A stretch of 64,000 bases of DNA from Planctomycetales bacterium (lineage in GTDB: Bacteria; 4484-113; JAFGCY01). The notes beneath the pieces are model-generated. The model saw nothing but the letters and a program-made list of their open reading frames with translations, was not told the DNA's origin and made no database searches. Below, in pieces: positions 13,798-63,770 of this stretch. Every line of letters begins with the position of its first letter. Within the stretch, counting starts at the first letter, position 1. The DNA lies in assembly GCA_022646745.1 (NCBI GenBank), contig CP060262.1, positions 1,751,149 to 1,815,148 of the forward strand, written 5' to 3'. The position numbers and the translations under genes were made by a program.

Positions 13798-15840
13798 ATG
13801 CCAACTGAGCAGAACAAGCCGGCCCCTCCAGCCGCGGAAAGCAGCCAGCAGAAGGCGCAGCGCACCAGCTTGCGCAACTCGCGGCGCTTCATCGCGCGCT
13901 GGATCATCATCTCGAGCGTGGTCTCGCTGCTGCTGGGTGGCCTGCTGCTCGTCTTCAATACAAAGATCAACACGCTGCTGGCGGACTTCGACTCGCTCGG
14001 CAGCATCGAGGGCGGCCCGCTGGCGGTATCCATCTTCATGCTGGCCGGCGGCTGCGGCCTGCTGCTCCTGCTGCCGGTGCTTGGCGGCGAGCGGCGCGAG
14101 TGGGAACGGATCATGCCGCTGATCTTCGAGCAGCGCGGCCACTTCTCGAAGATGCTGATGGGCAGCGCGATCTTCGTCGTGACCGAGATGTCATTGCCGG
14201 CCTTCATCGGCTACATGGTGAATGACATTGTCAACACACAGCGCAGCATGCCCGGGCTCTACATCGCGATCGGCGTGCTGCTGGCGGTGCTGGTGCTGCG
14301 CGCCGTCGGCGGCTACTTCCGCCAGAACCACGCACAGGCGCTGGCCTACAGCATCTCCGCCGACCTGCGCCAGAAGCTGTACTCGCACCTGCAGAAGATG
14401 AACTTCAGCTACTTTGACAAGGCCCGCCAGGGCGACCTGATGTCAACGCTGACGAACGACGTGGAGAAGCTGCAGTTCTTCCTGCTGAACTCCAGCGAGG
14501 ACTTCTTCGTGGCCCCGCTGAAGGTCTACATCGGCATCGCCTGCGTGATCTTCCTCAACTGGAAGCTGGCGGTGGTGATCATCCTGACGATGCCGCTGAT
14601 CTCGATCATGCTGAAGTTCGCCGGCGGGCGGCTCAGGCGCATCAACCGCGAGGCGCAGGACTGGGTGGCTAAACTGACGGCGGAGCTGGCGGAGGGCATC
14701 AACACCATCCGCCTGGCCCAGAGCTTCGGCCTCGAGCGCACCGAGCTGTCACGCTTCCAGCACACCAATGAGGAGACCCGGCGGCACCTGCTCGGGCATG
14801 CCCAGGTCAGCGCGGTGCTGCTGCCGATCGTCGAGGCGATCGGCTTCATCGGCCCGCTGGTGATCATCATCTCGCTGTGCTGGTGGGCGATCAGCGGCGG
14901 GGTGGACCTGAAGGCGGCGGAGATCCTCACACTGGCCGGCTACGGCGCGCTGATTGCCAACCCGCTTGGCAAGGTCAGCCGCCTGATGGTGACCCTGTCC
15001 CAGGGCGAGGCCGCCAGTTCCCGCATCAACGGCATCCTCGACACCGAGGCCGCGATCCACGACCTGCCGGATGCCAAGGAGATCGCCGAGGTGGACGGCC
15101 GGATCGAGTTTGACAACGTGACCCTGCAGTACGGCGCGAAGGATGCCTACGCCCTGCGCGAGGTCAACCTCGTGATCCAGCCCGGCACACTGACGGCATT
15201 CGTCGGCGAAAGCGGCAGCGGCAAGTCCAGCCTCGTGCACCTCGTGCCGCGCTTCTACGAGGTGAGCAGCGGGCGGGTGCTGCTGGACGGGCATGACGTG
15301 CGCGGCCTGAAGCTTGCCAACCTGCGCAGCCACATCGGGCTCGTCAGCCAGGACACGATCCTCGTGCATGGCACGATCGCCGAGAACATCGCCTACGGCA
15401 CGCCGGATGCGGACCATGTGGAGATCCTCGGCGCGGCCCAGAGTGCCAACGCCCACACCTTCATCATGGAGTTCCCGGATGGCTATGACACGGTGGTCGG
15501 CGAGAAGGGCGTGACCCTGTCCGGCGGCCAACGCCAGCGCATCGCGATTGCGCGCGCATTGCTGCGCGACCCGCGCATCCTGCTCTTGGATGAGGCCACG
15601 AGCGCACTCGACAGCGTGAGTGAGGCGATGGTGCAGGATGCGCTCAACAAGCTGATGTTCGGCCGCACCACGCTCCTCGTCGCACACCGCCTGTCAACGG
15701 TGCGCCATGCTGACAATATCGTGGTGCTGAAGGCCGGCCGCATCTTCGAACAGGGCAACCATGAGGCACTGATCGCGAAGGGTGGGGAGTACGCACGGCT
15801 CGTGAAGCTGCAGGGCATGGCGCGGGAAGAGTCCGGATAG
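13798..15840 (+). CDS. ABC transporter, fused permease/ATP-binding (MsbA/ABCB-type exporter)
   Basis: Six-TM domain followed by Walker A GESGSGKSS, signature LSGGQRQRIAIARAL and Walker B ILLLDEATSALD. Extra ~90-aa N-terminal extension. Confidence 0.85.
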   Translation: MPTEQNKPAPPAAESSQQKAQRTSLRNSRRFIARWIIISSVVSLLLGGLLLVFNTKINTLLADFDSLGSIEGGPLAVSIFMLAGGCGLLLLLPVLGGERREWERIMPLIFEQRGHFSKMLMGSAIFVVTEMSLPAFIGYMVNDIVNTQRSMPGLYIAIGVLLAVLVLRAVGGYFRQNHAQALAYSISADLRQKLYSHLQKMNFSYFDKARQGDLMSTLTNDVEKLQFFLLNSSEDFFVAPLKVYIGIACVIFLNWKLAVVIILTMPLISIMLKFAGGRLRRINREAQDWVAKLTAELAEGINTIRLAQSFGLERTELSRFQHTNEETRRHLLGHAQVSAVLLPIVEAIGFIGPLVIIISLCWWAISGGVDLKAAEILTLAGYGALIANPLGKVSRLMVTLSQGEAASSRINGILDTEAAIHDLPDAKEIAEVDGRIEFDNVTLQYGAKDAYALREVNLVIQPGTLTAFVGESGSGKSSLVHLVPRFYEVSSGRVLLDGHDVRGLKLANLRSHIGLVSQDTILVHGTIAENIAYGTPDADHVEILGAAQSANAHTFIMEFPDGYDTVVGEKGVTLSGGQRQRIAIARALLRDPRILLLDEATSALDSVSEAMVQDALNKLMFGRTTLLVAHRLSTVRHADNIVVLKAGRIFEQGNHEALIAKGGEYARLVKLQGMAREESG

Positions 15841-16250
15841 TGGAAGAAGTCTGAATAGTGGAAGAAGTGATTAGTGTTTAGTTCTTAGTAGCGGCGGCGC
15901 CCCCGCCGCTGGGGCAGGTTGGAGTGGGGAGTTTGGAGTTGGGAGGCGCGCAACTTGTTTGCGCGCAATTCGATGGTGAAGCAGTCCGAAGAGGGTAAGA
16001 AGTTGCTAGTGTTTAGTTCTGAGTAGCAGCGGCGCCCCCGCCGCTGAGGGATGTCAGACGAAAGTCTGGCAACAGTTAGCAAAGGGCAGTAGGCAGCGGG
16101 CAGTAGGCAGGATGAGAATGAGAAACAGAATGAGAAGCAGCAGATGCCTATGCTCCCCTACTTCTTTCACTTCCCCCACTATGCAGACTATCCAGACTAC
16201 CGCTGAAGCAGGTAGCTCCGCACATCCCTCATCCCGCATCCCCAGCCAGG
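15841..16250. repeat. Repeat-rich, low-GC intergenic region with two copies of a ~45-bp direct repeat, each carrying a GC hairpin
   Basis: GTGATTAGTGTTTAGTTCTTAGTAGCGGCGGCGCCCCCGCCGCTGG (15868-15913) recurs at 16003-16048. Hairpin AGCGGCGG-CGCC-CCGCCGCT and palindrome GCGCGCAA-CTTG-TTTGCGCGC. Direct repeats GGGCAGTAGGCAG x2 and GAATGAGAA x3. Convergent gene ends on both sides. Confidence 0.5.
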
Positions 16251-16251
16251 C

Positions 16252-16992
16252 TTACAGCCTGGCCTCCCGTTCCTCCCTGTCACGCAGCCGCACATGTTCG
16301 CGCAGCACACCCGTTCCGAGCGTGATCTCCAGCAGGTTGGCAAAGCCCCATTGCCAGAGTGGCGTGGAGAGGATGAGCATGCCCAGCGGTGTGAAGCTGG
16401 CGATGCTCTGCGCATCGTGCAGCAGCAGGTTGAGCGCGGAAAGGATCATCAGCGGGGCAAGGGCGATCGTGCTGATTGCAGTCGCTGCACCTGGCCTGCG
16501 ACGCAGCTCCAGCAGGTAGGGTAGCTGCATCCCCGCGGCCCGGGCCCGGCCGAAGCCCGTTGCCAGGTTGAGGTGGATATGGTCGAGCCGGGCAAGGTAT
16601 CCGCTAGCGTAGTCCTCCACCGGTGGGTAGTTGTCGTCGCTGAGCAGCCGCAGCAGCAGGTCAGAACCGGCAATGCGTCGGCGCAGCTCCACGAGTAGCA
16701 TCCCCAGCCGCAGCAGCTGGAACAGGCCGAAGCAGAATGAGAGGATGAAGCCCGCCATCAGCAGGCGGAAGGGTGGTGTCTGGCTCACGCTGCCAGCCAG
16801 CGGGTAGTCAGCCGCAAGTGAGTACACCACGCGCCAGCCGCAGATAAGGTAGAGCACTACGGGGATGATCACGAGGAACAGCCAGGCGGCAAGCATTGTC
16901 ATTTCCGGTCCCAGCACGCGGCCGGCCGGCAGCACGCGCTCTCCCTGCGGCGGGGTGAACAGGATGCGCTCGAAACTGTGCCGCTCAGGCAT
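16252..16992 (-). CDS. 4-TM membrane protein, member 1 of a tandem paralog triplet (operon-distal)
   Basis: Start MPERHSFERILF… (ATG 16990-16992) overlaps the upstream gene stop by 8 nt. Topology is TM-TM, ~70-aa loop, TM-TM. C-terminus LREHVRLRD. Confidence 0.6.
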   Translation of the reverse strand: MPERHSFERILFTPPQGERVLPAGRVLGPEMTMLAAWLFLVIIPVVLYLICGWRVVYSLAADYPLAGSVSQTPPFRLLMAGFILSFCFGLFQLLRLGMLLVELRRRIAGSDLLLRLLSDDNYPPVEDYASGYLARLDHIHLNLATGFGRARAAGMQLPYLLELRRRPGAATAISTIALAPLMILSALNLLLHDAQSIASFTPLGMLILSTPLWQWGFANLLEITLGTGVLREHVRLRDREEREARL

Positions 16993-17800
16993 CGGTTGTC
17001 TGTCCTGTGTCAGACGGCTGGTCGATGTGCAGTAGGCCGTTGTCAAGCTCGCGCAGGTGCTCACGCAGCAGGGATTGCTGTACAAGCTGGTACATCACCG
17101 GCAGGGCCAGCCAGGTGATGATTACGGCCAGCACAACCTGCGTGACAGCAATGATGAATGTCTCGTTACCGCTGCCGTTGGCCGGCGCATTGGACCGCAG
17201 ATGGCTCAGTGGAACCAGGACTGGAACTGAGAGGCACAACCAGATCAGCAGCAGGTTCACGATCAGGGGAGGCCAGGGGGATTTCCTCAGGCCAATGCAG
17301 TAATCAAGCTGGCGGAAAGCCTCGATGAAGTGGTTCATCATTGTCTCTTTGCGCAATGCCAGCAGTTCGAAGCTGCGCAGCCAGCCCGCCAGCGGGCCAT
17401 CGTGGTACTCCACCCGCCAGCCATGCATCAGCCGGACCGCGATGTCGGACTGCTTCAGCCGGCTGCGCACCCTGTCCAGATGCGCCCGGGCGCGGCTGGT
17501 GAGGAACAGTGTTGCCAGCACCGGGGCCAGTACCGCAAGCACAAGAGCTGCGATGGTGAGGCCGTCCAGCTGCGGGTTGCCCTGGCTCGAGCCCAGCGTT
17601 GCCATCATCATGTCCACTATCAGGGAGATTGCAACAAACAGCAGGCTGATCATTGGCGCAAGCGTCAGGCCCATTGCCATCACCATGTTGATGAAGGCAT
17701 CCGCAGAATCCATCCGGCTCAGGCCGAAGCTCCTGCGGTCCATCTCGCCGAACACCTGCTGCTCCAGGCTGGCCCTGGGAGTGTCGGACACATCAGCCAT
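16985..17800 (-). CDS. 4-TM membrane protein, member 2 of the triplet
   Basis: 271 aa with the same topology. Loop motif KQSDIAVRLMHGW. C-terminus LLREHLRELD. Start overlaps the upstream stop by 8 nt. Confidence 0.65.
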   Translation of the reverse strand: MADVSDTPRASLEQQVFGEMDRRSFGLSRMDSADAFINMVMAMGLTLAPMISLLFVAISLIVDMMMATLGSSQGNPQLDGLTIAALVLAVLAPVLATLFLTSRARAHLDRVRSRLKQSDIAVRLMHGWRVEYHDGPLAGWLRSFELLALRKETMMNHFIEAFRQLDYCIGLRKSPWPPLIVNLLLIWLCLSVPVLVPLSHLRSNAPANGSGNETFIIAVTQVVLAVIITWLALPVMYQLVQQSLLREHLRELDNGLLHIDQPSDTGQTTDA

Positions 17801-18542
17801 GCAACACCTCCACTGCCGCTGGCCGTTGGCTCACGCTGGATGCCTGCTTGTCAAGGTCGCGCAGGTGCTCGCGCAGCAGCAATGCTTCACAGCGCTGCGC
17901 AAGAAAGGCATGCAGGCAGACATGCGTTGCCAGCAGCAGGCATGCTTCAATGGCTGCATAATTCAGGAAACTGTAGAAGTTGACCGGGGCATTGAGCACA
18001 ATGGCAACCAGCAGGGCTGCAAGCATGGGCAGCATCAGGATTGAAGGCAGCCAGCGCTGTTTTTCTCGGCCCTGCATGAAGGACAGCTGCTGGAATACCA
18101 GCCGCAGCTGCAGCGCCAGATCCCTGCCGGAATCAGTTTGCATTCCCTGCTCAATCTCCCTCAGCAATGCCAGGAACGGTGCATCCGGGCTGTCGGGTTG
18201 CCAGCCGGTCATGACCCTCGCCACCAGGTCAGAACGTCTCAGCATGCGCCTGGCGACGGAGATCCTGCGTGCCAGCAGCAGCAGGTTCAGCAGGCTGAGC
18301 AGTACGGCACTGAGCGCGAGCGACCAGCCAATGGTCTCAATGTATTCGTAATCAAAGGCATGGCGCACACCGGGATTGATAGCCTTGATTGGAGCGAGCG
18401 TGTACTGTAACCATAGGAGCGGCGGCAGCAGCGAAGGCACGAGGATGGCCAGCGCAGGCCACAGGGGATAGAGGTAAGTGCTGCGTGGTTCGCGACTGGC
18501 GTGCTCGCCAAACACCCGGTTCTCAAAGCTGGCCGTCTGCAT
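17793..18542 (-). CDS. 4-TM membrane protein, member 3 of the triplet (operon-proximal)
   Basis: Start chosen at MQTASFENRVFGE (RBS AGAGGGGA). A TATAAT box sits ~35 nt upstream on the minus strand. Loop motif RRSDLVARVMTGW. C-terminus LLREHLRDLD. The track ORF extends to 18689 through the repeat element. Confidence 0.55.
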   Translation of the reverse strand: MQTASFENRVFGEHASREPRSTYLYPLWPALAILVPSLLPPLLWLQYTLAPIKAINPGVRHAFDYEYIETIGWSLALSAVLLSLLNLLLLARRISVARRMLRRSDLVARVMTGWQPDSPDAPFLALLREIEQGMQTDSGRDLALQLRLVFQQLSFMQGREKQRWLPSILMLPMLAALLVAIVLNAPVNFYSFLNYAAIEACLLLATHVCLHAFLAQRCEALLLREHLRDLDKQASSVSQRPAAVEVLHG

Positions 18543-18616
18543 CGTCCCCTCTGTATCAAGCATGTCCATTCCCATGGGGATTATACGCCTGCGGGCATGG
18601 CTGCGCCAGCCTTGAC

Positions 18617-18767
18617 AGCAATGAGCAATGAAGAGTGAGCAATGAGTAGGAAGCAATGAGTAGGGATCAATGAAGAATGATCCTATCAATGTTTAGCAGG
18701 ACTCGATGCAGGTTCAGTCTCATTGCTCACTCTTCAGTGCTCATTGCTCCCCACTCATTGCTCCCCC
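18617..18767. repeat. Palindromic GAGCAATGAG-repeat element, copy a
   Basis: Arm CAATGAGCAATGAAGAGTGAGCAATGAG (18619-18647) is an almost perfect inverted repeat of CTCATTGCTCACTCTTCAGTGCTCATTGC (18719-18747). Additional (A)GCAATGAG direct repeats flank it. Located in the divergent promoter region between triplet gene 3 and the lipoprotein gene at 18828. Confidence 0.55.
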
Positions 18768-18827
18768 GCTTGACCCGCAAGCCGCATCCGCGGATAATTG
18801 ACTGGTAGTCCATCCAAGGGGAATAGC

Positions 18828-19679
18828 ATGGGAACGCAGAAGGGTATCGGTTTCGCAGGCGTGCTCGCCATCAGCCTGGCCTCACTGGTCTTCGGGGCCT
18901 GCGGCGGCGGAGGGGGCAACATCACCGGCTACGTGGTGCCGGACAACCCCTATTACTACGGTGGCAACAACGGCCCCTACTACTCAGGTAACAGCGACTA
19001 CTACTACCAGAACGGCTACTACTACGACCAGTATGGCTACTATGACCAGTTCGGCTACTACGACGGTTATGGCAACCAGCTGTACAACTCGAATGACCCG
19101 GCCTACGTGAACATCGTCAACCGCAACGGACGTGGCAACGACCCCTTCATGCAGAACTATGCCAACATCAACGACCGCACGGTCTCGCAGTTCGTCAACT
19201 CAACCTACTCCGAGATGCTGGCGGACTTCGGCGGCAGCCTGCAGGACCTGCTGGTGCGCGTGGATGGCAACTCAGTTGACATCCCGCCCGGGGAGTACAC
19301 GCTGGCAAGCCGCAATGCGGTGCTCAGTGAGGACGGCGGCCTGGACAGCGCGATCACGCTCAACTCCAGCTATGACGGAGTCAGCCTCGTGACCTACACG
19401 CTCGAGGAGTTCTCCGGCTACGAGCAGCTGGCCAGCTTCGCCATCAACGGCACGGGCAGCTTCGGCAGTGGCGACCGCAACGGGGTGTACTTCGGCATCC
19501 GCCAGTACGGCGACCGTGACACCCGCTGGTACGGCCCCTACCGCAACGGGATGGAGTGGAAGGTGCGCCCGCTGCGCTGGGATGAGCGCTACCAGTCGCG
19601 CCACTGCTTCGTGACCGTGGCTGTGTTCGGTGGAGACAGCGTGACCGTGAACCACATGCGCGCTGAGGTCGTTTACTGA
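18828..19679 (+). CDS. Lipoprotein with Tyr/Gly-rich low-complexity segment and a C-terminal W-Y-G-P-Y domain
   Basis: MGTQKGIGFAGVLAISLASLVFGAC lipobox. YYYGGNNGPYYSGNSDYYYQNGYYYDQYGYYDQFGYYDGYGN low-complexity segment. C-terminal TRWYGPYRNGMEW…HCFVTVAVFGG resembles the domain in the 21312/22287 lipoproteins and the giant protein. Confidence 0.65.
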   Translation: MGTQKGIGFAGVLAISLASLVFGACGGGGGNITGYVVPDNPYYYGGNNGPYYSGNSDYYYQNGYYYDQYGYYDQFGYYDGYGNQLYNSNDPAYVNIVNRNGRGNDPFMQNYANINDRTVSQFVNSTYSEMLADFGGSLQDLLVRVDGNSVDIPPGEYTLASRNAVLSEDGGLDSAITLNSSYDGVSLVTYTLEEFSGYEQLASFAINGTGSFGSGDRNGVYFGIRQYGDRDTRWYGPYRNGMEWKVRPLRWDERYQSRHCFVTVAVFGGDSVTVNHMRAEVVY

Positions 19680-19723
19680 ATCGAGGACTGACGAGGCACT
19701 GAATCTCGTGCTGAGGGAATTCC

Positions 19724-20221
19724 ATGGAATCTCCACATTCCGGCATGCCTGCATTGCGCAGCCCGGGCTATAATCGCCCAGTGGCGAAAAGCTCAGTCTG
19801 GTTATGCATTGTATGCTTTGCACTGCTGCTGGCAGGTGCCTGCGGCAGTTCATCCACATATTCCTACCGCCTGCCGGCCGGCGTTGACAACAACCTGCGC
19901 ATCGTGCGCGCCGGTGACCCGAACTCGGTGCTGGCCGACACGCAGGACAAGGGGCGGATCACGATGCGGGTCGGCGAGACGCTGACGGTCTCGGCGATCT
20001 ACCGCTTCCGTTCTGCGATCTTCACCGGCACTGACGAAAAGGATGAATTCGTCACCGCGGACAGCAGCTGGCACTGGCTGGAGGCCGTGAATGACACACT
20101 CAGCTTTGACAACGGGGTGGTCACGGCACTCAAGCCAGGGGTGGACACGCTCAAGGCGGAGTACCGCGACAACGACATCTTCGAGGACTTCGACGCCAAG
20201 CTGGAAATCACCGTTGAATAG
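19724..20221 (+). CDS. Small lipoprotein, paralog 1 of a tandem pair (Ig-like/BIG-type fold suspected)
   Basis: LLLAGACGSS lipobox. Aligns along its length with the next gene (…LRIVRAGDPNSVLADTQDKGRITMRVGETLTVSAIYRFRSAI…). Confidence 0.65.
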   Translation: MESPHSGMPALRSPGYNRPVAKSSVWLCIVCFALLLAGACGSSSTYSYRLPAGVDNNLRIVRAGDPNSVLADTQDKGRITMRVGETLTVSAIYRFRSAIFTGTDEKDEFVTADSSWHWLEAVNDTLSFDNGVVTALKPGVDTLKAEYRDNDIFEDFDAKLEITVE

Positions 20222-20278
20222 GGGCACGGTACCGGGATGGGCAGACGGATCAGGAAACCACAGTTACAGGAGCTGGAA

Positions 20279-20713
20279 ATGACAATCAACAGGATGGCGG
20301 GGATCTTCCTCGCAATGGTGGCGATGCTGGCGCTGGCCGCCTGCGGCGGTGGCGGCAGCGAGTACATGCTGCCCACCGGCCAGGACTACAGCCTGCGCCT
20401 CGTGAAGGGCGGCGACCCGAATGACGTGCTGGCCTCCACCGAGCGCAAGGGCCACATCACGATGAATGTCGGCGAGACGCTGAATGTCACGACGATTTAC
20501 CGCTTCCGCTCGGCGATCGGCGACAAGGAGAAGGATGAGTTCGTCACGGCGACCTCGGCCTATGTCTGGCTGGAGGACGTGAATGACAAGCTGAGCTACA
20601 GCAACGGCAAGATCACCGCGGTCAAGGCCGGGCTGGACACCCTGCTCGTTAACTACGTTGACAACAATGCCAATGAGACCGTGTCCTGCCGGCTGGAGAT
20701 CACGGTCAACTGA
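20279..20713 (+). CDS. Small lipoprotein, paralog 2 of the tandem pair
   Basis: RBS AGGAG before MTINRMAGIFLAMVAMLALAAC. ~45% identical to the previous gene. Confidence 0.65.
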   Translation: MTINRMAGIFLAMVAMLALAACGGGGSEYMLPTGQDYSLRLVKGGDPNDVLASTERKGHITMNVGETLNVTTIYRFRSAIGDKEKDEFVTATSAYVWLEDVNDKLSYSNGKITAVKAGLDTLLVNYVDNNANETVSCRLEITVN

Positions 20714-20737
20714 TCTTCATCGGATTGATCCACAGTG

Positions 20738-20768
20738 GGCCCGCTTCGGCGGGCCCTTTCTGCTTTCT
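20738..20768 (+). terminator. Rho-independent terminator (GGGCCCGC-TTCG-GCGGGCCC + TTTCTGCTTTCT)
   Basis: Perfect 8-bp GC stem, UUCG tetraloop and T-rich tail directly after the 20713 stop. Confidence 0.55.
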
Positions 20769-20774
20769 GCTCCC

Positions 20775-20890
20775 TGGCTCCGCCTAACAATCTCCTTCTT
20801 CATTTACTTCTCCCACTTCTTCAACTATTCAGACTATCTACACTATTGCCAGACTCTCGTCTGGCCTCCTGCCCACTGCTTACTGATTAT
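20775..20890. repeat. Mosaic short-repeat segment related to 15841-16210
   Basis: CACTTCTTCAACTATTCAGACTATC is the reverse complement of AGTCTGAATAGTGGAAGAAGTG at 15849. TACTTCT..CACTTC..CAGACTATC.A.ACTA matches 16157-16200 in direct orientation. Hairpin GCCAGAC-TCTC-GTCTGGC (compare CAGAC-GAAA-GTCTG at 16058). CCTGCCCACTGCTTACTG is the reverse complement of the CAGTAGGCAGCGGGCAGG family. Confidence 0.45.
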
Positions 20891-20988
20891 TTAACTTTCA
20901 CTTAATCAAACTCCTGTTAGGGTTCCGCCCCCCTGCGGTAACACATCTGGTTTGTGAGAACCCCACCAAATTCCAAAGGAGGCAGACC

Positions 20989-21177
20989 ATGCGTTCAATG
21001 ATCTATGCAGTGGCGGCAGTGCTGCTGGTACTTGCAATGGCAGTGGTTCACATGCTGTCCTCTGCGGATGCCGCGGGCGGCAGCCGGGAGGGGCAGCGCA
21101 TCGGCATGGCCGTTGCAGGTGACCACACTGACGATGCTTATTGCCAGGTTTCTGACTGGCTGAGTGAACTGGACTGA
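20989..21177 (+). CDS. Small protein (62 aa) with N-terminal hydrophobic segment
   Basis: Consensus RBS AAAGGAGGCAGACC before the ATG. MRSMIYAVAAVLLVLAMAVVHMLSSADAAGG is signal- or TM-like. Confidence 0.45.
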   Translation: MRSMIYAVAAVLLVLAMAVVHMLSSADAAGGSREGQRIGMAVAGDHTDDAYCQVSDWLSELD

Positions 21178-21311
21178 TGCAGGTGTTGACTGCCTGATCG
21201 GTGGGGCCGGGAAACCGGCCCCTTTCCGTTTCTGTTTAGCGATTGCGCTGGGCGGGTAACGATAACGGTTCATCTGTGGAACCCCAAAATCCAAATCAGA
21301 GGCCCACAGAA

Positions 21312-22115
21312 ATGTATGGAAAGTCTTATACCGGGTTTGCCGGTATCATCGCAGGAAGCATCATGATCCTCGCAGCCAGCTGCTCCGGTGGCAACGGCAT
21401 GGCAGAGGTCCCCTCCCCGCAGGACAGCGCGCCTGTCATCGGGGAAGCGCTCACCATGGAAGGTGCCCCCAGCCTGGAGAAGATCTCCAGCGGCTGGCAG
21501 CAGTGGGGCGATTTCGAGCTCGGCTGGCTGGACCTGCACCAGAGCGTGCATGACGGCAGCAATGAGCTGGACGAGACCCGCATCTTCGCCAAGAGCGAGG
21601 GAGTCTACAACTTCGAGGACGGCGGCAAGGACTACATCAACTTCCCGGCCGCCGGAGTCGGCATGCACTACGCCGTGTTCGGCCTGAAGGACATCCCGGT
21701 CGGCTCGATCATCCGCGGCATCCGTTTCACCACGGACTTCAACAGCTCCGAGAGTGATGACGCCGAGTACTACGTTGCCTACAGCAACTACGAGACCGGT
21801 GTGTTCCAGTGGTACGGCCCCTACGCCGAGGGCGACATCGAGCTCTACAACCTGTTCACGAACAACGTCAGTGTCGGCCAGAAGGCCTACTTCACCATCG
21901 CGGTCACGGGGAACAACTACTACTCCGACGTGACGGACGTGGAAGTCAGCATCGGCAAGCCGCTGAAGGTTGATCTGCCGCTGCTCTACGAGCGCCAGCC
22001 GATCCCCAACGACTGGGTTCTCAATGAGTATGGCAAGGTGGACTGGGACCTGCTGTGGAAGCGTCCCGAGTTCCAGGAGATCATGATCATCGTCCGTCCG
22101 ATCCTGATCTTCTGA
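21312..22115 (+). CDS. Lipoprotein, tandem duplicate 1 (W-Y-G-P-Y domain family)
   Basis: MYGKSYTGFAGIIAGSIMILAASCSGG lipobox. ~60% identical to the next gene, including the upstream leader (GGTTCATCTGTGGAACCCCAAAATCCAAATC…CCCACAGAAATG). Confidence 0.7.
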   Translation: MYGKSYTGFAGIIAGSIMILAASCSGGNGMAEVPSPQDSAPVIGEALTMEGAPSLEKISSGWQQWGDFELGWLDLHQSVHDGSNELDETRIFAKSEGVYNFEDGGKDYINFPAAGVGMHYAVFGLKDIPVGSIIRGIRFTTDFNSSESDDAEYYVAYSNYETGVFQWYGPYAEGDIELYNLFTNNVSVGQKAYFTIAVTGNNYYSDVTDVEVSIGKPLKVDLPLLYERQPIPNDWVLNEYGKVDWDLLWKRPEFQEIMIIVRPILIF

Positions 22116-22129
22116 GCAGCAACAAGCTG

Positions 22130-22166
22130 TCCTGAACAGCGGGCCTGGCATCTGCCGGGCCCGTTT
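22130..22166 (+). terminator. Rho-independent terminator (CGGGCCTGGCA-TCT-GCCGGGCCCG + TTTTTGTTTTTCT)
   Basis: GC stem plus a long T-tract after the 22115 stop. Confidence 0.55.
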
Positions 22167-22286
22167 TTGTTTTTCTGCACGATCCTGTGCGCTTTCACTG
22201 CATTTGCTGTTTAGGTTTGGGAGGGGCCGGGTAACAAGAATGGTTCATCTGTGGAACCCCCAAATCCAAATCTAGGACCCACAGAA

Positions 22287-23129
22287 ATGTACGGAAAGTT
22301 CACTAACAGCATTGCAGGAATCATCATCAGCGGCGCCGCCATCATGGCAGCCAGCTGCTCCGGCGGAGCCGGGATGGATACAGCCAACCCGGGTAACACC
22401 GAAGTCGACCAGGCCGCCATCATTGAGCAGGCCATCACCACCGACGAGATGCCTTCCCTTGAGAAGCTCTCCAGCGGCTGGGAGCAGTGGACCGGCAGCG
22501 ACATCCTGATCGACTGGTACACCGTCTGGCTCAACAAGCACCAGAGCGTCGGCTACGGCGTGAACGACCTTGATGAGACAAAGCTGATCACCAAGAGTGA
22601 GGGCGTCTACAACTTCGAGGACGACGGCAAGGATTACCTCAACTTCCCGGCCACCGGCGGCGGCCTGAACTACGCCGTGTTCGGCGTCAAGGACGTTCCG
22701 CAGGGCGCGATCATGAAGGGCATCCGCTTCACCACGGACTTCAACTCCAGTGAGAGCCCGAACGCTGAGTACTACGTCTGCTACAGCAACTACGAAAGCG
22801 GTGTCTACCAGTGGTACGGCCCCTTCGCAGAGGGCGAGTACGAGGTCTACAACTTCTACACAAACAACATCAACGAGTACCAGCGTGGCTACTTCACCAT
22901 CGCCATCACCGGCAACAACTACTACAGCGATGTGACTGACGTGGAAGTGATCATCGGCGACCCGATCGACTTCAAGATCCCGGACCTCGTCGAGCACCAG
23001 CCGATCCCGAACTGGTGGCTGATGGACGACCTGGGCTTCGTGGACTGGGGCAAGCTGTTCGAGCTGCCCGCCGTCCAGCAGCTGAAGATCGCCCCGCAGT
23101 TCCAGTTCAGGACTGAGCTGGCCCGCTAG
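22287..23129 (+). CDS. Lipoprotein, tandem duplicate 2 (W-Y-G-P-Y domain family)
   Basis: MYGKFTNSIAGIIISGAAIMAASCSGG lipobox. Conserved blocks SEGVYNFED(D/G)GKDY(I/L)NFPA, IRFTTDFNSSES, QWYGP(Y/F)AEG, TGNNYYSDVTDVEV. Confidence 0.7.
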   Translation: MYGKFTNSIAGIIISGAAIMAASCSGGAGMDTANPGNTEVDQAAIIEQAITTDEMPSLEKLSSGWEQWTGSDILIDWYTVWLNKHQSVGYGVNDLDETKLITKSEGVYNFEDDGKDYLNFPATGGGLNYAVFGVKDVPQGAIMKGIRFTTDFNSSESPNAEYYVCYSNYESGVYQWYGPFAEGEYEVYNFYTNNINEYQRGYFTIAITGNNYYSDVTDVEVIIGDPIDFKIPDLVEHQPIPNWWLMDDLGFVDWGKLFELPAVQQLKIAPQFQFRTELAR

Positions 23130-53881: not shown

Positions 53882-56800
53882 CTACTCGATGCAGATCGCG
53901 AGACCCATTCCTCCAGTGGTGGTTGTTCCTGCAACATCATTTCCGATCATCATCGCGTTTGGTTTGCGGGAGATGGTCGGCCCGCTAGTGACAGGTAGCC
54001 AGCTGCTGCCGTTGACATCCAGCCCACGCTGCAGGCTTGTGGTGAAGGGGCATTCATATATCCTGGGCAGGCCACTGCGATCCAGCAGTTGCGGGTAGTT
54101 GCCATAGGTGTTGGCTGTTGCGCCCAGTAGGTACTCGGTGCCGGACCAGCTGCTGCCATCCGCATTGTCAGACCGGATGTAGTAGAGCTGGTTCCAATTG
54201 AACAGCGCCATTGCCGGATAGCCGTCGATGATGGCCAGGTCGGGCCTGGAACGGAACTGCGCTACTGCAATCGGGGCGTTCCATGAACTGCCATCCGCAC
54301 TGCTGGCACGCAGGTACCAGATATAGCCCACTGACTCATCTGCATATGTGATGGCCGGATTGCCGTTCACGATGATCATGTCAGTGTCATGACCCGTGTC
54401 AGCCGTGCTGTCCAGCACCTGCACGCTGCCCCAGCTCGTGCCCTGTGCATCAAGCGCCCGGATGAAACACAGTCTGTTGGCAAGGTCATCCTGGAAGGAG
54501 AGGGCCGGATAACCGTCAACGATTGCCCCGCTGGAAAACACCACGCCGAGCCCGGTTGGGATGTCCACCGGTGCACTGGTCCAGCTGCTGCCGGAGGCAT
54601 CGTCAGCCCGGATGATCCTGAGCGTGTCAACCACATTGCGGCTGTAGATCACGGCCGGGTGTCCGTCCGCCTCAATCAGCTGCAGGCTGAGAATCGTGCC
54701 GCTGCCCACGATCTGGACCGGTGTGCTCCAGGCCCGGCCATCCGCCTGGCTGGCAATCGCAAAGCGGATTCCGGAACCGGATGGAGCAGTCGAGTAAGCC
54801 ACGGCGGGCATGCCGCCGATCAGCTCCAGGTCCTGGTAGTCCCCGACATTCACGCTGCTGTCAATTGGCACCAGCAGCGGGTTGCAGTCGATCGTCAGGC
54901 TGTCCGTGTGCACATGACCATCGTTGTCAGTCACCTGCATCACCACTGTGTAGTCACCGATGCCGAAGTCATGGGAGACGGTCGGGTCCGTGCCGCTTGC
55001 CTCGTCATAGCTTCCATCGCCGTCCCAGTCCCAGGAGTAGTCGACAATGCTGCCATCCACATCGAATGACTGGCTGGCATCGAAGTTCACCGTCAGGATG
55101 CATTCACCTGCTGTCACGTCGCTGGTGAGGATGGCGTAGGGCCAGTATTCACCATCCCCTCCCAGGGCAAGTAACTGGCCATCCACGGGTAGATAGGTAG
55201 TCCCGTCAGTGCCGATCACGGGCTGGTAGGTTGCGGGGGCATCGTCCTGCAGGGCATAAACCCAGTCTGACAGCCCGGTGGAACTGGCAATCCCACGAGC
55301 GTCGTCATTGGTGCCGCAGATTATTGAATCGGAGGCATCCACTGTCGGATTGTGAAAGATGCTGAACGAATTCAGGAAGTTCCAGTTCTGGTTGCCGGCC
55401 GGGTCATATGAACGAATGCTGCTGTTCTTGTAGGCAATGATGTTGCCGGCATTGTCTACCCCGAAATGGCCGACTCCCCCGAAGAACAGATCCTGCCAGT
55501 CAAGAGTTCCGTCAGGCAGGTAGCTGTACACATGTGTGAATCCCACGATGATGTTCCCTGTGGGGGTGACCAATGGTGCCACATCGGGAGAGGAGGGCAC
55601 CTTCCACTGGAAATTGCCGTCAGGATCCACACAGTAGACAAAGTCATTAGTCGGGAAGATGATGTTGCCGGACAGGTCAAAGCAGCTGGCCTGGCTGACA
55701 TCGTAGTTCTTTCCTGTGCTGTATTCCCAGAGGAAATTGCCGTCTGGATCATGGCACACAAGACGGGCGGGGGATTCGGTGGAATAGTAGATATTGCCGT
55801 TCGGTCCGATGCTGGCCGTGGTGTACATCTCCGCAGTGTGGCCCGATTTCCAAAGGAAGTTGCCATTGAAGTCGATCTTCTCCAGCTGGGCATCGCTCGC
55901 ACTCGACGTGAGGATGCCGTCCACCGCCAGACACGGGCCGATTACCGGCCCCCAGGTCGGGTAGGTCCACAGCTCCTGGCTGTCCTGGCTGATCGCGCGC
56001 AGAAGCGCTCCATCATTCAGCAGCACAACATCATCGGGTGTGATTACCAGGTTACGTGGAGAGTTGCTGAAGTGCAGGTACCATCGCCTGTCCGGATCCG
56101 GGTCTGCAATGTTCATTGACTGACCGTTGCCCCTGGAATTTCCATTGGCCGTCCACCACACATCATCGCCGGGCGGGCTGGGGGCGGTGCAGATCTCCAT
56201 CGTGCGCGTACTGAAGACACCTGAGTCGTCATAGGCATAACAGACAACCACATGCCGCAGGGTACCGGACAGGGTCGTCCCCGTTGTCGGCGAACTGCCC
56301 GTCTCATCCATCACACCGTCGCCATCGAAGTCCCAGCGGTATTCCACGATGGAGCCGTCGGGGTCGTAGGAAGCCGAGGCGTCGAAGCTGACCGACAGGG
56401 GGCTGGCCCCGCTGTAGGCACTGGCGGTGCACAGCACCACCGGCAACTGGTTTGCAGCGCTGACGGTCACCTGCAGGCTGTCGTTGTCCTGCAGCCCGTC
56501 GTTGTCAGTCACGCGCAGGGTGACGGTGAATTCACCGGCGTCATTGAAGGTCCAGTCAACGGTATCGCCGGCATCGGTCAGGTCCCAGACACCGTCCGTG
56601 TTGAAGTCGTAGTCGTAGCTGACGATGCTGCCGTCCGGGTCGCTGGAGCCTGTGGCGTCGAAGTTCACCTGCAGCGGGGCTTCGCCGGAATTCAAATCAG
56701 AAGCCAGCACGGCAATCGGTGGCGTACCTTCAATGGGCGGGTTGCCGATGCAGCTCAGCATGCCGTTTGGCATCACGATCAGCACCCTGCCGTCAGCCCC

Positions 56801-59494
56801 GATCACCGGGCCGTGGAAGGTGCCAGTGCCCATGTCCTGGTCAAAGAACAGATTGCCATTGGCATCGAATGCCATCACCCAGCCGCTTGAGTCATTGAAG
56901 TAAGTGTTGTCCTGTGAGTCGATTGCCACACCACGGATGCCGTAGATATGTGGCTTGACATGCCAGTCAACCGAGCCATCGGAGGGATCAACCTGGTAGA
57001 TGTCACCGGAGCTGGTTCCGATGCGCAGCTTGCCATCGCGGGACTCAGCGCTGATCACGTGGTTGTCCGCCAGCGGAACTGACCACTGCTCCTGCAGCTG
57101 GCTGTCATAGGCGACGAGATTCGCATCGGTGTCGCCGACCATCAGCAAACCATCCCGGTTCAGCATCGCGATGCCCCGTGCACCGAGCATATCCTCAGTC
57201 AGTGCTGCATCAATTGAGGTCCAGCTGTACCAGCCGATGCCACTGCCGTAGACGACGCCCCGTGCCCCGTCAATCATCGGCATTGTCAGGCCGCCCTGCG
57301 TCGGCAGGTCCAGCTGCCAGAAGGTATTCCCGCTGCCGTCGATCAGTGCGACCTTGTCCGTGCCGACCAGCAGCGCGCGGTCCAGGGCATGGCTGTAGGT
57401 GGCACTGAGCACTGGGTCCGTCAGTCCGCTGGTCTGCCAGACCTGCGCTCCGCTGGCATCCAGGCAGACCGCGCCGCCGGCCGTGGATGGCACCAGCAGG
57501 TGGTCATCGTCAATCACGCTGATCTCGGGGGCACCGCTGATCGGCTTGTCCCAGTTCAGCCCGCCGTCCTTGTCCAGGCTGAACATCACGTTGTCAGTGG
57601 TGGCGAAGTAGATGTTGCCGGCGCTGTCAACCACGGGAATATGGTGGATCGTGCCCGGTGCCGGTGCATCGTAGGTCCACAGCACTTCCGCTCCGGCAGT
57701 GAATCCGGGCGAGGGACTGCGCCGCGTGTTCCAGGCGGTTGCCCCCGGCACGGGCCAGCTCGAGTGGAAGATGTGCACCGCCGCACTTGTGCTGTCCTGG
57801 AATCCGTTGTTGTCAGTCACCCGCAGCCTGACGCGGTAGCTGCCGGGGCTGTTGAACTGGTGCGTCAGCGTATCCTCGCTGCCCTGCTGGTCATAGCTGC
57901 CGTCACCGTCAAAGTCCCATTCATACAGTTCGATTGTGCCGTCAGGGTCCATGCTGGCACTGCCGTCAAGCTGGACCAGGGCGCCGGCAAAGCCGTCGCT
58001 CTCGGGATACGCAAGGACCGCAACCGGTGGTTCTCCGGATGCCGCAACACTGATCTGCAGCTCATCGGTGTCAACTGCCCCGTTGTCATCAATCACCCGG
58101 AAACGGGCGGTGAACTCCCCGGGCTGCATGTAGACATGCACATACGGCGTGATCGGGTCGGGGCCGGAGATGTCGTAGAAGCCGTCACCGTCATAGTCAA
58201 GCGCATAATCCACGATGTAGCCGTCAGGGTCCGAAGCCGTGCTGCTGAAGCCGACGGACAGCGGCGCATCACCGGAAAGCACATCTGCCGCGGCTGCGAC
58301 CTGTGGCGGCTGGTTGTCAGTTACCAGCACGCAGCAGGCTGCCAGCCGAACCGCCTGCTGGTCCGCCGTACGCGAGAGGATGCCGGGACGCATGAAGCCT
58401 GCTGGCTGAGCCACGGTCGTGAAGCTGCCCAGCACCTGTCCGGTCTGCTCGAAGCTGCCGTCACCGTTGCCATCGAGGTCATAGCTCTCCGCTCCGACCA
58501 CATCAACATCCAGTAGCGTATCGGTCTTTGGCTCATTTGAGTCCGGCAGCAGCAGTGGAATGGAGGCGGTACCGATGCCGGGCTCAAACTGCAGCACATC
58601 ACTAAGCAGGCCCTGATTGCCAGCGAAGTCGACGGCTGTCAGGGCAGCCCAGCCACCGCCGGGCATTTCCAGCTGGCAGAGCGGGCCGGCAAACAGGAAC
58701 TCGTGCAGGGTCACACCCGGGTCCCCCGTCCCGCTGAACTGGCTGGACGATGTATAGAGCCGGTAACCGGCGATCGAGGGATCCGCAAGCCTTGTCCAGC
58801 CTGCCAGGATGCCGCCGGCAGCCGGCTGCACGAAGAAGTCCTCCACCGCATCGGGCGAAGTGAAGTCCTCAGTATCAAGCATGTTGACGGAACAGTTGAC
58901 CACATCCAGCCGAGCGCCCTGGCTGGCAACCACGGCGACGAATGTGTTGCCAAGCGAACTCGTGTAGTCTGTGGCATTGTCGAACAGCGGAATGCGCAGC
59001 TGGCTGTCGTGGATCGGGCCGAACCAGTCCCAGCGGCCTGTGGTGTAGTTCGCCAGCCCGACCGAATAGCTGCTGGCCTTGCCTTTCGAGTCCTCCAGCG
59101 GATTGATGTCAAGGCTCACTACCGCCGGGCTGCCACCATGGTTGTCAATCCGGTAGATGCACGATGCACTGGAATCTGCGGATGCGCCGCCGGTAAGCCT
59201 GGCTGCAATGCCCATCCGTATCACATCACCACTGCGCCGGAACCAGTCAAATCCAAGTACGACTTCAGACTGGTCATTGATTGCCAACGGACTGCGCTGG
59301 TTGAACTGTGATTGCGGATCCAGTTCCCAGGCATGCGGCCTGTCCTGCGGAATCACGGTAAACGGGTCAGGGCTTGCGGCTAATGTTCCAGCCGGCTCAA
59401 GGCCGGATTGCTGGCCGAACTGTCCGCCCCCACAGGATATGCAAATCATTGCAAGCAAGACGGTTGAGCTGAGCAATGAAAGTAGAGATTTCAT
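53882..59494 (-). CDS. Giant (1870 aa) cell-surface lipoprotein: W-G-P domain + multiple PKD domains + PQQ-like beta-propeller + C-terminal BNR/Asp-box propeller
   Basis: Start MKSLLSLLSSTVLLAMICISCGG (ATG 59492-59494). N-terminal domain …NYTTGRWDWFGPIHD… homologous to the 21312/22287 lipoproteins. At least 5 PKD motifs (YALDYDGDGFYD, YEWDFDGDGSYD, YDYDFNTDGVWD, YRWDFDGDGVMD, YSWDWDGDGSYD). PQQ-like repeats (…GNIYFATTDNVMFSLDKDGGLNW…). Six C-terminal SxDxGxxW Asp-box repeats (SADGSSW, NADGSSW, DASGSSW, DAQGTSW, QADGRAW, DVNGSSW). Confidence 0.8.
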   Translation of the reverse strand: MKSLLSLLSSTVLLAMICISCGGGQFGQQSGLEPAGTLAASPDPFTVIPQDRPHAWELDPQSQFNQRSPLAINDQSEVVLGFDWFRRSGDVIRMGIAARLTGGASADSSASCIYRIDNHGGSPAVVSLDINPLEDSKGKASSYSVGLANYTTGRWDWFGPIHDSQLRIPLFDNATDYTSSLGNTFVAVVASQGARLDVVNCSVNMLDTEDFTSPDAVEDFFVQPAAGGILAGWTRLADPSIAGYRLYTSSSQFSGTGDPGVTLHEFLFAGPLCQLEMPGGGWAALTAVDFAGNQGLLSDVLQFEPGIGTASIPLLLPDSNEPKTDTLLDVDVVGAESYDLDGNGDGSFEQTGQVLGSFTTVAQPAGFMRPGILSRTADQQAVRLAACCVLVTDNQPPQVAAAADVLSGDAPLSVGFSSTASDPDGYIVDYALDYDGDGFYDISGPDPITPYVHVYMQPGEFTARFRVIDDNGAVDTDELQISVAASGEPPVAVLAYPESDGFAGALVQLDGSASMDPDGTIELYEWDFDGDGSYDQQGSEDTLTHQFNSPGSYRVRLRVTDNNGFQDSTSAAVHIFHSSWPVPGATAWNTRRSPSPGFTAGAEVLWTYDAPAPGTIHHIPVVDSAGNIYFATTDNVMFSLDKDGGLNWDKPISGAPEISVIDDDHLLVPSTAGGAVCLDASGAQVWQTSGLTDPVLSATYSHALDRALLVGTDKVALIDGSGNTFWQLDLPTQGGLTMPMIDGARGVVYGSGIGWYSWTSIDAALTEDMLGARGIAMLNRDGLLMVGDTDANLVAYDSQLQEQWSVPLADNHVISAESRDGKLRIGTSSGDIYQVDPSDGSVDWHVKPHIYGIRGVAIDSQDNTYFNDSSGWVMAFDANGNLFFDQDMGTGTFHGPVIGADGRVLIVMPNGMLSCIGNPPIEGTPPIAVLASDLNSGEAPLQVNFDATGSSDPDGSIVSYDYDFNTDGVWDLTDAGDTVDWTFNDAGEFTVTLRVTDNDGLQDNDSLQVTVSAANQLPVVLCTASAYSGASPLSVSFDASASYDPDGSIVEYRWDFDGDGVMDETGSSPTTGTTLSGTLRHVVVCYAYDDSGVFSTRTMEICTAPSPPGDDVWWTANGNSRGNGQSMNIADPDPDRRWYLHFSNSPRNLVITPDDVVLLNDGALLRAISQDSQELWTYPTWGPVIGPCLAVDGILTSSASDAQLEKIDFNGNFLWKSGHTAEMYTTASIGPNGNIYYSTESPARLVCHDPDGNFLWEYSTGKNYDVSQASCFDLSGNIIFPTNDFVYCVDPDGNFQWKVPSSPDVAPLVTPTGNIIVGFTHVYSYLPDGTLDWQDLFFGGVGHFGVDNAGNIIAYKNSSIRSYDPAGNQNWNFLNSFSIFHNPTVDASDSIICGTNDDARGIASSTGLSDWVYALQDDAPATYQPVIGTDGTTYLPVDGQLLALGGDGEYWPYAILTSDVTAGECILTVNFDASQSFDVDGSIVDYSWDWDGDGSYDEASGTDPTVSHDFGIGDYTVVMQVTDNDGHVHTDSLTIDCNPLLVPIDSSVNVGDYQDLELIGGMPAVAYSTAPSGSGIRFAIASQADGRAWSTPVQIVGSGTILSLQLIEADGHPAVIYSRNVVDTLRIIRADDASGSSWTSAPVDIPTGLGVVFSSGAIVDGYPALSFQDDLANRLCFIRALDAQGTSWGSVQVLDSTADTGHDTDMIIVNGNPAITYADESVGYIWYLRASSADGSSWNAPIAVAQFRSRPDLAIIDGYPAMALFNWNQLYYIRSDNADGSSWSGTEYLLGATANTYGNYPQLLDRSGLPRIYECPFTTSLQRGLDVNGSSWLPVTSGPTISRKPNAMMIGNDVAGTTTTGGMGLAICIE

Positions 59495-59578
59495 GAACTG
59501 TCCGCCATATCGGAATAAGCAAGACTGTATCAAAATCTCCTATGCACATGCAATATGCAGCCAAATCAGTCGCCGGGT

Positions 59579-59671: not shown

Positions 59672-60196
59672 TTAACCCTTGGTGCCGGTCTCGGTGCTGG
59701 CAGTGTCGTCCTTCTCCGTGGACTTCTCCTTGCCTTCGCAGTCACCGCAGTCCTTGCCATCGCAGTCGCCGCAGTCCTTGCCTTCCTTGCCCTCGCAGCC
59801 TTCCTTGCCCTCACAGCCTTCCTTACCGCAGCAGTCCTTCTCGCCTTCGCCGCCCATGCTGGCGTCGGTGGTCACGATGCCTTCCTTGGCCTCGGCGGCG
59901 CAATGCTCACAGGTGCCACCCTCGGCAGCAGCGCACTCAGCGCAGGCTTCCTTGGAAGCAGCCTCGGTCGCCTTGTCACCGGCACAACCGGCGCAGCTGC
60001 TGCAGCCGCCTTCAGCGGCCTCAGCGCCACAGGGGTTGGCAGCCGGGGGAGCCACACCGGTGTCGGTGCTGGCGTTGACGGTCTCGACGGCCTTGCCGTT
60101 GTCGGCGGCATCCGCGCTGTAGTTGCTGTCATTACAGCCGGCTGCCACCAGGATGGCCGCCAGCGCAAGAAGAAGCATTGCAATTCTGAATTTCAT
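59672..60196 (-). CDS. Cys-rich repetitive lipoprotein (174 aa), metal-binding-like C(G/E)(K/D)(E/D)GC repeats
   Basis: RBS AAGGAGAT. MKFRIAMLLLALAAILVAAGCNDS lipobox. C-terminal CCGKEGCEGKEGCEGKEGKDCGDCDGKDCGDCEGKE. Many CxxC and CAEC pairs. Confidence 0.65.
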   Translation of the reverse strand: MKFRIAMLLLALAAILVAAGCNDSNYSADAADNGKAVETVNASTDTGVAPPAANPCGAEAAEGGCSSCAGCAGDKATEAASKEACAECAAAEGGTCEHCAAEAKEGIVTTDASMGGEGEKDCCGKEGCEGKEGCEGKEGKDCGDCDGKDCGDCEGKEKSTEKDDTASTETGTKG

Positions 60197-60340
60197 CGTT
60201 TGATCTCCTTGGTACTGTGCTCGCCGGCCATCAGACGGACCGGCTGCTACCGCAGCTTGAACGTGCAGACTATATAACATGGCTGCACGACCCTTGCGCA
60301 AATGATCGCAAGACACTGCTCTGACGCAAAACGGCGCGGA

Positions 60341-61069: not shown

Positions 61070-61120
61070 CGCGCGCTGATTATAGGGGGATGCCGAAATC
61101 TAGTGGCGTCGCCCCGTCGC

Positions 61121-63655: not shown

Positions 63656-63770
63656 GCAATGATTTTTGAGTGATGAGAAGTGAGTAATGAGCAATGAGTT
63701 CAACTCACTGTGACGTCACCTCGTTGCCTGTCAGGCTCATTGCTCACTCTTCATCACTCATTGCTCCTCA
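63636..63770. repeat. Palindromic GAGCAATGAG-repeat element, copy b
   Basis: GCAATGAGCAATGAAGAATGAGCAATGA … GTGATGAGAAGTGAGTAATGAGCAATGAG, then a spacer containing the perfect palindrome GTGACGTCAC, then the inverse arm GCTCATTGCTCACTCTTCATCACTCATTGCTCC. Shares the exact 17-mer TCATTGCTCACTCTTCA with copy a. Confidence 0.55.

Follow-up and report, generated by a model that had tools for sequence, protein, structure and literature searches.

A 64,000-nucleotide stretch of a Planctomycetales bacterium genome (contig CP060262.1 of assembly GCA_022646745.1, positions 1,751,149 to 1,815,148; hereafter the window) carries, on the minus strand at 16252-18689, three consecutive co-oriented open reading frames (ORFs), A, B and C, each predicted to encode a protein with four transmembrane (TM) helices. 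Comparison with related loci shows that A, B and C form one predicted expression unit under a conserved -10 promoter, with B and C translated by coupling, as judged from the overlaps between the genes. The proteins make up a genuine orphan membrane-protein family which, by its sequence, lies far from every known family in the libraries searched. The same comparison shows an array that gains and loses tandem copies (2 to 4-5 of them) by birth and death and diverges far faster than its flanks. Database searches show that the family is confined, as far as they reach, to this chromosomal position in metagenome-assembled genomes (MAGs) of one candidate phylum (GTDB 4484-113; submitters' label "UBP7").

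Gene structure, junctions and topology

Gene A (17793..18569, minus strand), the first gene of the operon, encodes 258 amino acids (aa) from an ATGGAC start and is labelled hypothetical protein H7A35_07040 by NCBI. The initial annotation had described three consecutive minus-strand genes of 246, 271 and 249 aa. We found the ORFs as described, including a 249-aa version of A that begins at an in-frame ATG at 18542; a further in-frame ATG lies at 18563 (256 aa). The start of A is more likely at 18569, because the Met at 18542 is replaced by Ile in the 98%-identical ortholog at locus L001 and the ATGGAC at 18569 is kept in the window, L001, L005 and L006. This is also the NCBI call (258 aa), and 17793-18569 is most likely the true extent of the gene. 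Gene B (16985..17800, minus strand; NCBI hypothetical protein H7A35_07035) encodes 271 aa and belongs with A to an A/B ("upstream") clade of four-TM proteins. Gene C (16252..16992, minus strand; NCBI hypothetical protein H7A35_07030) encodes a four-TM protein of 246 aa that is identical to P0003, falls in a terminal "C-type" clade with an LREHVR.RDRE tail and is the member best conserved between genomes. Public annotations of the family read "hypothetical protein" throughout.

Both stop/start overlaps measure exactly 8 nucleotides (nt), as had been claimed. At the A/B junction (17793..17811, minus strand) a GGAGG (17807-17811) within the end of A is followed by the overlap ATGGCTGA (17793-17800), and B and C overlap by ATGCCTGA (16985..16992, minus strand; ..D A * / M P E..). 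The A/B-type junction region with ATGGCTGA recurs in L001, L006 and L009, and a ATGCCTGA or GTGCCTGA junction is present in L001, L006, L009, L013, L014 (four times) and L015. Across 7 loci, 14 junctions have the form ATG(G/C)CTGA, or GTGCCTGA, usually with GGAGG 5-7 nt upstream, which accounts for the frequent C-terminal ..DA or ..HG and N-terminal MPE or MA(D/E) of the members. The ATG(G/C)CTGA junction is retained even between paralogs that are only ~20% identical. That it outlasts protein divergence of this extent argues for selection on coupling. The earlier proposal of coupled, stoichiometric expression in the manner of hetero-oligomers therefore stands in part: ATG(G/C)CTGA together with GGAGG backs the coupling, but a fixed complex of three subunits in set stoichiometry is not implied, because copy number varies among loci.

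The TATAAT that had been noted upstream of the operon is a -10 box at 18580..18585 (minus strand), inside the conserved GCGTATAATC and 10 nt upstream of the ATGGAC. The GCGTATAATC -10 box also precedes the first gene in five other loci (L005, L006, L013, L014 and L016), and the distance from TATAAT to ATGGAC is exactly 10 nt in the window, L005 and L006. As this distance is so short, the operon transcript is probably leaderless or nearly so. A consensus promoter scanner found no full -35/-10 pair on the operon strand, and the -10 box was accepted from its comparative conservation rather than from the scanner.

The topology that the initial annotation had ascribed to all three proteins was recovered by hydropathy, by an AlphaFold2 (AF2) model of B and by the positive-inside rule. 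In the hydropathy profiles each of A, B and C has two TM hairpins around a hydrophilic loop of ~75 aa. The AF2 model was computed from a 16-sequence alignment (predicted local distance difference test, pLDDT, 77.8; predicted template modelling score, pTM, 0.75) and was used instead of an earlier 8-sequence run, which was poor (pLDDT 60). It is all-helical, with helices at 33-70, 80-117, 179-202 and 210-253, short helices in the central loop, and long TM helices that continue into the cytoplasm. Averaged over 16 family members, the N-terminus has 5.2 Lys plus Arg residues, the central loop 12.4 and the C-terminus 4.2, against 0.7 for loop 1 and 0.2 for loop 2. Since these residues are concentrated in the N-terminus, the central loop and the C-terminus, a model of four TM helices with both termini in the cytoplasm (N-in/C-in) is supported.

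Conservation is unevenly spread over this predicted topology. The central loop has a near-constant length of 73-76 aa and the outward loops range from 3 to 23 aa. Pairwise column identity is 0.24-0.36 in the cytoplasmic parts, 0.16-0.19 in the TM helices and 0.11-0.14 in the outward loops. The near-invariant residues (B numbering) are E13, F17, P49, R112, S118, D119, R123, Q164, L165, L245, R246, H248, R250 and D253. Three cytoplasmic elements are conserved: an N-terminal S-F/L-E..F helix, the extension of TM2 (R.R...SD...R) and the extension of TM4 (LLREHLR.LD). The TM cores contain no conserved polar or charged residue, and the sole conserved position there is Pro49 of TM1. The short motifs that had been singled out as shared by the three proteins coincide with the family's most conserved columns. 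An internal duplication, in which the N-half hairpin and basic helix would correspond to the C-half, was considered and not supported (hhalign probability 5%), though the halves align in register.

A and B match each other at a BLASTP E-value of 1.5e-10, and the A/B and C clades align by hhalign at 98.7% probability over 240 columns. By these alignments, A, B and C are true paralogs. Orthologs with conserved junctions occur in at least six assemblies. Against the orthologs of the sister MAG, the ratio of nonsynonymous to synonymous substitution rates (dN/dS) is 0.11 for B and 0.18 for C, and 0.03 for the adjacent ATP-binding cassette (ABC) exporter gene. The synonymous divergence (dS) from the sister MAG (L001) climbs along the operon, from 0.015 in A to 0.13 in B and 0.25 in C, with 0.11 in the ABC exporter gene. 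The gradient suggests recombination or gene conversion inside the array.

Known families, distribution and turnover

The family had been described as uncharacterised, and profile and fold searches left it so, with no match in Pfam, NCBIfam, PADLOC, PHROGs, PDB (sequence or fold) or BFVD. In Pfam and NCBIfam nothing scored above threshold, the best scores being 15 bits for DUF898 (cutoff 28) and 17.4 bits for CydC (TIGR02868; cutoff 329). PADLOC gave no match at E≤1 and PHROGs no significant match. The family profile had 0 matches at E≤10 among all PDB chain sequences, and a Foldseek search of the B model against PDB and BFVD gave none at E≤0.001, with only generic matches at E-values ≥0.1. We rejected DUF898, DUF5693, BrkB, FtsX, MlaE, CydC and phage holin, all far below their cutoffs, as noise from hydrophobic composition.

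Several families of similar appearance were compared individually. The bPH_2 family of YdbS and YdbT (PF03703), in which two TM helices precede a bacterial PH domain (a beta-sandwich), gave no Pfam match, and the B model consists of helices throughout, four of them TM, and lacks strands. For SLATT proteins, which have two TM helices plus a cytoplasmic helical domain and are associated with defence or nucleotide-signalling genes, there was no Pfam or PADLOC match at E≤1; the array proteins have four TM helices, and no defence genes were found in the neighbourhood. Membrane-shaping proteins of the reticulon/Yop1 type have two short hydrophobic hairpins that cross the bilayer incompletely, minimal luminal loops, a hydrophilic loop of ~60 aa and an amphipathic C-terminal helix. 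The array proteins resemble them in having two hairpins, a cytoplasmic loop (73-76 aa here) and a C-terminal helix. The Pfam models Reticulon and TB2_DP1 gave no match, and helices of 24-44 residues with polar outward loops of 3-23 aa indicate full membrane spans in the array proteins.

An exhaustive hmmsearch of 1.84 billion cluster representatives returned 12 proteins at E≤0.001, each 247-309 aa long and matched in one segment. In word-indexed searches of 5.8 billion proteins, the third of which was capped at 8000 candidates and gave fewer, the matches listed numbered 2-5, and a C-type alignment search found only three GTDB species genomes. All matches that could be placed are at the same syntenic locus. 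Its frame consists of a divergent lipoprotein gene on one side and, on the other, a convergent gene for the ABC exporter, beyond which come those for Hydrolase_3 and peptidase S11. The carrier genomes are MAGs labelled "UBP7 HKST-UBA01/03", "AC1.30" or "Bacteria_4484_113". A review table gives 12 genomes for GTDB phylum 4484-113, the largest of 4.11 Mb, with bioreactors and activated sludge as their sources (PMC11382960).

The initial annotation had treated the triplet as the unit of the system, a view that our survey of related loci did not uphold: there are 2, 3, 3+1 or 4+remnant copies. In detail, the window and L001 have 3 copies, L013 has 2 and no C-type member, L006 and L009 have 1 + 3, L014 has 4 plus a 75-aa C-type remnant beside a Y1 transposase gene, and L015 has at least 3. 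A neighbour-joining tree separates an "upstream" clade with at least five subgroups from the "terminal C-type" clade, and the paralogs are mutually 13-30% identical.

The array differs strongly from its surroundings in how well it is conserved. Between the window and L006, amino-acid identity is 91% for peptidase S11, 85% for the ABC exporter, 79% for the hydrolase and 75% for the lipoprotein, compared with 72% for C and ≤34% for the best matches of A and B. More generally, the identity of upstream-type members does not exceed 34% in comparisons of genomes in which the neighbouring genes share 75-92%. At L016 the ABC exporter is 89% identical to that of the window and the C-type gene only 33%.

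Several loci carry traces of other changes at the array. At 8237-8335 of L006 (and also in L009), a 32-aa ORF, MDMPETAGTVGSASQTQERLATPSPSAEAADA*, runs from the conserved promoter-proximal ATGGAC into the ATGCCTGA junction of the next gene and ends ..ADA*; it may be what is left of a deleted paralog, or else a leader peptide. At 4194-5141 of L014, the C-type gene is cut to a 75-aa ORF that contains repeated "LMELSP" units, and a Y1 transposase gene (IS200/IS605 or RAYT-type) has been inserted behind it. Downstream of the array there are up to two soluble "x" genes (266-292 aa), which match no family and are absent from the window. Genes for DUF2283 proteins adjoin the array in L006, L009 and L014.

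Flanking elements and a second four-transmembrane triplet

A palindromic element upstream of the operon had also been reported, and its GAGCAATGAG copies are present. It is an imperfect palindrome of ~150 bp at 18617..18765, built of GAGCAATGA units and located between two divergent promoters. There are 4 exact copies of GAGCAATGAG at 18637-18763, and the window holds 7 exact 10-mers of GAGCAATGAG against 0.22 expected. Folded as DNA, the ~150-bp hairpin of GAGCAATGAG units has a dG of -40.6 kcal/mol (z -8.3). A second hairpin copy at 63631-63768 has the same terminal arms, the centre being variable between copies, and partial copies of the element lie upstream of the array in L001, L006 and L009. 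The GAGCAATGAG element is absent from the orthologous promoter sites of L005, L013 and L014. Because of this absence and of the second copy at 63631-63768, the GAGCAATGAG palindrome is, on comparative grounds, a dispersed repeat of this genome, similar to a miniature inverted-repeat transposable element (MITE) or a repetitive extragenic palindromic (REP) sequence. A role as an operon-specific operator was ruled out, the element being dispersed and not conserved at orthologous promoters.

The convergent neighbour of the array is the ABC exporter gene at 13798-15840 (plus strand). In the gap between it and gene C are two 77-nt direct repeats, 83% identical (15843..16054), each of which holds a GC-rich hairpin or palindrome (AGCGGCGGCGCCCCCGCCGCT; 15890-15910 and 16025-16045). 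The pair may serve as a terminator or as a REP-like spacer. At the site of these repeats the relatives have 1-2 extra soluble "x" genes. Scans of the window for Rfam families and for tRNAs found nothing.

Divergent from the four-TM operon is a cluster of predicted, lineage-specific lipoprotein genes (18798-23129, plus strand) encoding 293, 165, 158, 62, 290 and 292 aa. Each product has a signal peptide followed by a Cys and a G-rich stretch, and the 165- and 158-aa proteins are an obvious paralog pair. The cluster has no Pfam matches and is syntenic in all related loci.

A second triplet of minus-strand genes for four-TM proteins lies elsewhere in the window, at 60341-62550: D (61861-62550), E (61121-61864) and F (60341-61069). 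D and E overlap by 4 nt, and E and F are 51 nt apart. The three proteins have the size and topology of A, B and C, and in a global alignment their motifs SFERR, SDAV..IMTG and LLPEEV.RRLRA fall in register with those of the first triplet. The family hidden Markov model (HMM) scores D, E and F at ~1-3 bits and hhalign gives 4-7%, neither of which is significant, and pairwise P values are 0.0015-0.005. Distant homology of the two triplets is possible on these figures. A metagenome scan for relatives of the second triplet found none. Close to it, also on the minus strand, are a 1883-aa ORF (53882-59533) whose N-terminus looks like that of a lipoprotein and which contains repeats of a PKD-like "DPDG(S/T)IV.Y.WDFDGDG" module and, adjoining this, a small gene for a Cys- and Glu-rich lipoprotein (59672-60316).

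Candidate functions

Since the cytoplasmic parts are conserved and the TM and outward parts are the most variable, we tentatively favour a reading in which the paralogs co-assemble through their conserved cytoplasmic helices and present a variable, specificity-determining outward surface; we consider this plausible, at somewhat less than an even chance. Under such a mechanism the co-translated paralogs would assemble side by side into a mixed-subunit complex in the inner membrane. The conserved, charged cytoplasmic helices would hold the complex together or transmit its signalling, and the variable surfaces facing the membrane and the periplasm would supply specificity. The set of subunits would be interchangeable rather than a fixed 1:1:1 trimer.

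Several observations weigh against co-assembly. The varying copy number is not what an obligate, defined hetero-complex would lead one to expect, and independent paralogs would fit it equally well. The C-type gene is entirely missing from L013, and in L016 it is preceded by a 31-nt gap and a separate TATAAT. Conservation of the junction may be accounted for in part by inheritance of a duplicated unit. The dN/dS values, on the pairs that could be measured, indicate purifying and not positive selection. In addition, the B model is a monomer of medium confidence.

Less likely, though a serious contender, is a diversifying set of membrane "specificity" proteins in which each paralog works on its own, for example in immunity to membrane-acting toxins, superinfection exclusion or defence, with the overlaps as a legacy of duplication. 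In favour of this, copy number and content differ among close genomes while the flanks stay 75-92% identical, and the TM helices and outward loops are the parts that vary most. The locus also resembles a hotspot-like slot, with the Y1 transposase in L014, DUF2283 in L006, L009 and L014, and 0-2 "x" genes, and in the 32-aa ORF of L006 nothing is left of a lost copy but its start and its ..ADA* end. Colicin A-type immunity proteins are small N-in/C-in four-TM inner-membrane proteins with their specificity in the membrane-embedded part. By analogy only, they would suit an array that turns over rapidly and varies in its TM and outward regions. They lack, however, the conserved cytoplasmic loop of 73-76 aa and the conserved cytoplasmic terminal helices of the array family, and the toxin gene of such systems was not found near the array. 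More broadly, no toxin, phage or known defence gene is nearby, PADLOC and PHROGs gave no matches, and the measured dN/dS is <1. Conservation peaks in the cytoplasmic parts, which hints at a common partner inside the cell more than at recognition confined to the membrane, and the ATG(G/C)CTGA and GGAGG junction has been kept despite divergence to ~20% identity.

We regard as improbable a third explanation, in which the proteins are accessory subunits or regulators of the adjacent ABC exporter, or the inner-membrane partner of the divergent lipoprotein cluster. The array does lie between the same ABC exporter and lipoprotein genes in every locus recovered. The long AF2 helices that extend into the cytoplasm are a likeness to the TM domains of type-I ABC exporters (MsbA, CydDC, BmrA), whose TM helices reach well into the cytoplasm, and no theme other than these domains recurs among the weak matches by fold or sequence, the best of which, all insignificant, include MsbA, BmrA, CydDC and TAP. 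Against this, the CydC match has 17 bits with a cutoff of 329, PF00664 (ABC_membrane) gave no match, Foldseek E-values are ≥0.1 overall and ≥0.6 for MsbA, TAP and BmrA, and the ABC gene is convergent and so outside the operon, with a dN/dS of 0.03 compared with a hypervariable array. Adjacency is itself a weak argument, as the genomes are closely related, with general synteny over 20 kb.

Still less probable, to the point of being very doubtful, is a divergent stator of the MotA/ExbB/TolQ type, or another known four-TM channel (connexin-like or bestrophin-like), beyond the reach of HMMs. MotA has TM1-2, a cytoplasmic loop, TM3-4 and a C-terminal tail, acts as an oligomer and is encoded in an overlapping operon. 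The initial annotation had set MotA/ExbB apart by TM count or loop position, which does not hold for MotA, as it shares the gross topology: two TM hairpins, a cytoplasmic TM2-TM3 loop, cytoplasmic termini and a short N-terminal helix. MotA, ExbB and TolQ are, like the array proteins, helical inner-membrane proteins of similar size, and MotA has the same gross layout with a cytoplasmic C-terminal helix. Its exclusion rests instead on sequence, fold and partner-gene tests. Neither A, B and C nor any of the 16 members matched PF01618 (MotA_ExbB) at E≤1, the family profile had none among PDB sequences at E≤10, and the model showed no fold similarity to solved stator structures. Neither the window nor six related loci have, within the operon or next to it, an ORF for a single-TM partner of the MotB/ExbD/TolR type, which would carry a conserved TM aspartate; the genes around the operon are those for the ABC exporter, lipoproteins, DUF2283 proteins and soluble "x" proteins. 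The partners here are mutual paralogs, and variable in number. The TM cores also lack conserved polar or charged residues, with only Pro49 (TM1) conserved. Connexin, innexin and CALHM channels have four TM helices, a short cytoplasmic N-terminal helix, a cytoplasmic TM2-TM3 loop and C-terminus, and mixed paralogous subunits; the array proteins share the four-TM layout, the cytoplasmic termini and the TM2-TM3 loop.

An artefact, in the form of fragments of one disrupted gene (a possibility raised in the initial annotation) or of non-functional ORFs, has a negligible probability and is already refuted by the comparative data: chance overlapping ORFs do occur in GC-rich DNA, and many spurious ones overlap the region in other frames, but every gene is a full-length copy of the four-TM architecture, relatives are 247-309 aa long and matched in one segment, the 1.84 billion representatives contain no longer, fused homolog, orthologs with conserved junctions occur in at least six assemblies, and dN/dS is 0.11-0.18.

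Returning to co-assembly through the cytoplasmic helices, a bolder form of it, which we consider unlikely, would make the array a hypervariable recognition system of the inner membrane (in immunity to toxins or phage, or in distinguishing self from non-self) composed of co-assembled, interchangeable paralogs, or else a new class of heteromeric channel, with the second triplet as a distant branch of the same superfamily. Should the co-assembly reading favoured above be right, the array would represent a membrane protein family and fold without described relatives in a barely studied candidate phylum from wastewater bioreactors. Orphan membrane families are common in candidate phyla, and with uncultured hosts the practical impact would be limited before a structure or a phenotype is available. 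The signature of the locus is nevertheless unusual: a fast-turning tandem array in a conserved chromosomal frame, yet with an exact 8-nt junction and a conserved cytoplasmic face. Systems under conflict or specificity pressure typically show such a combination, which could indicate a new envelope function.

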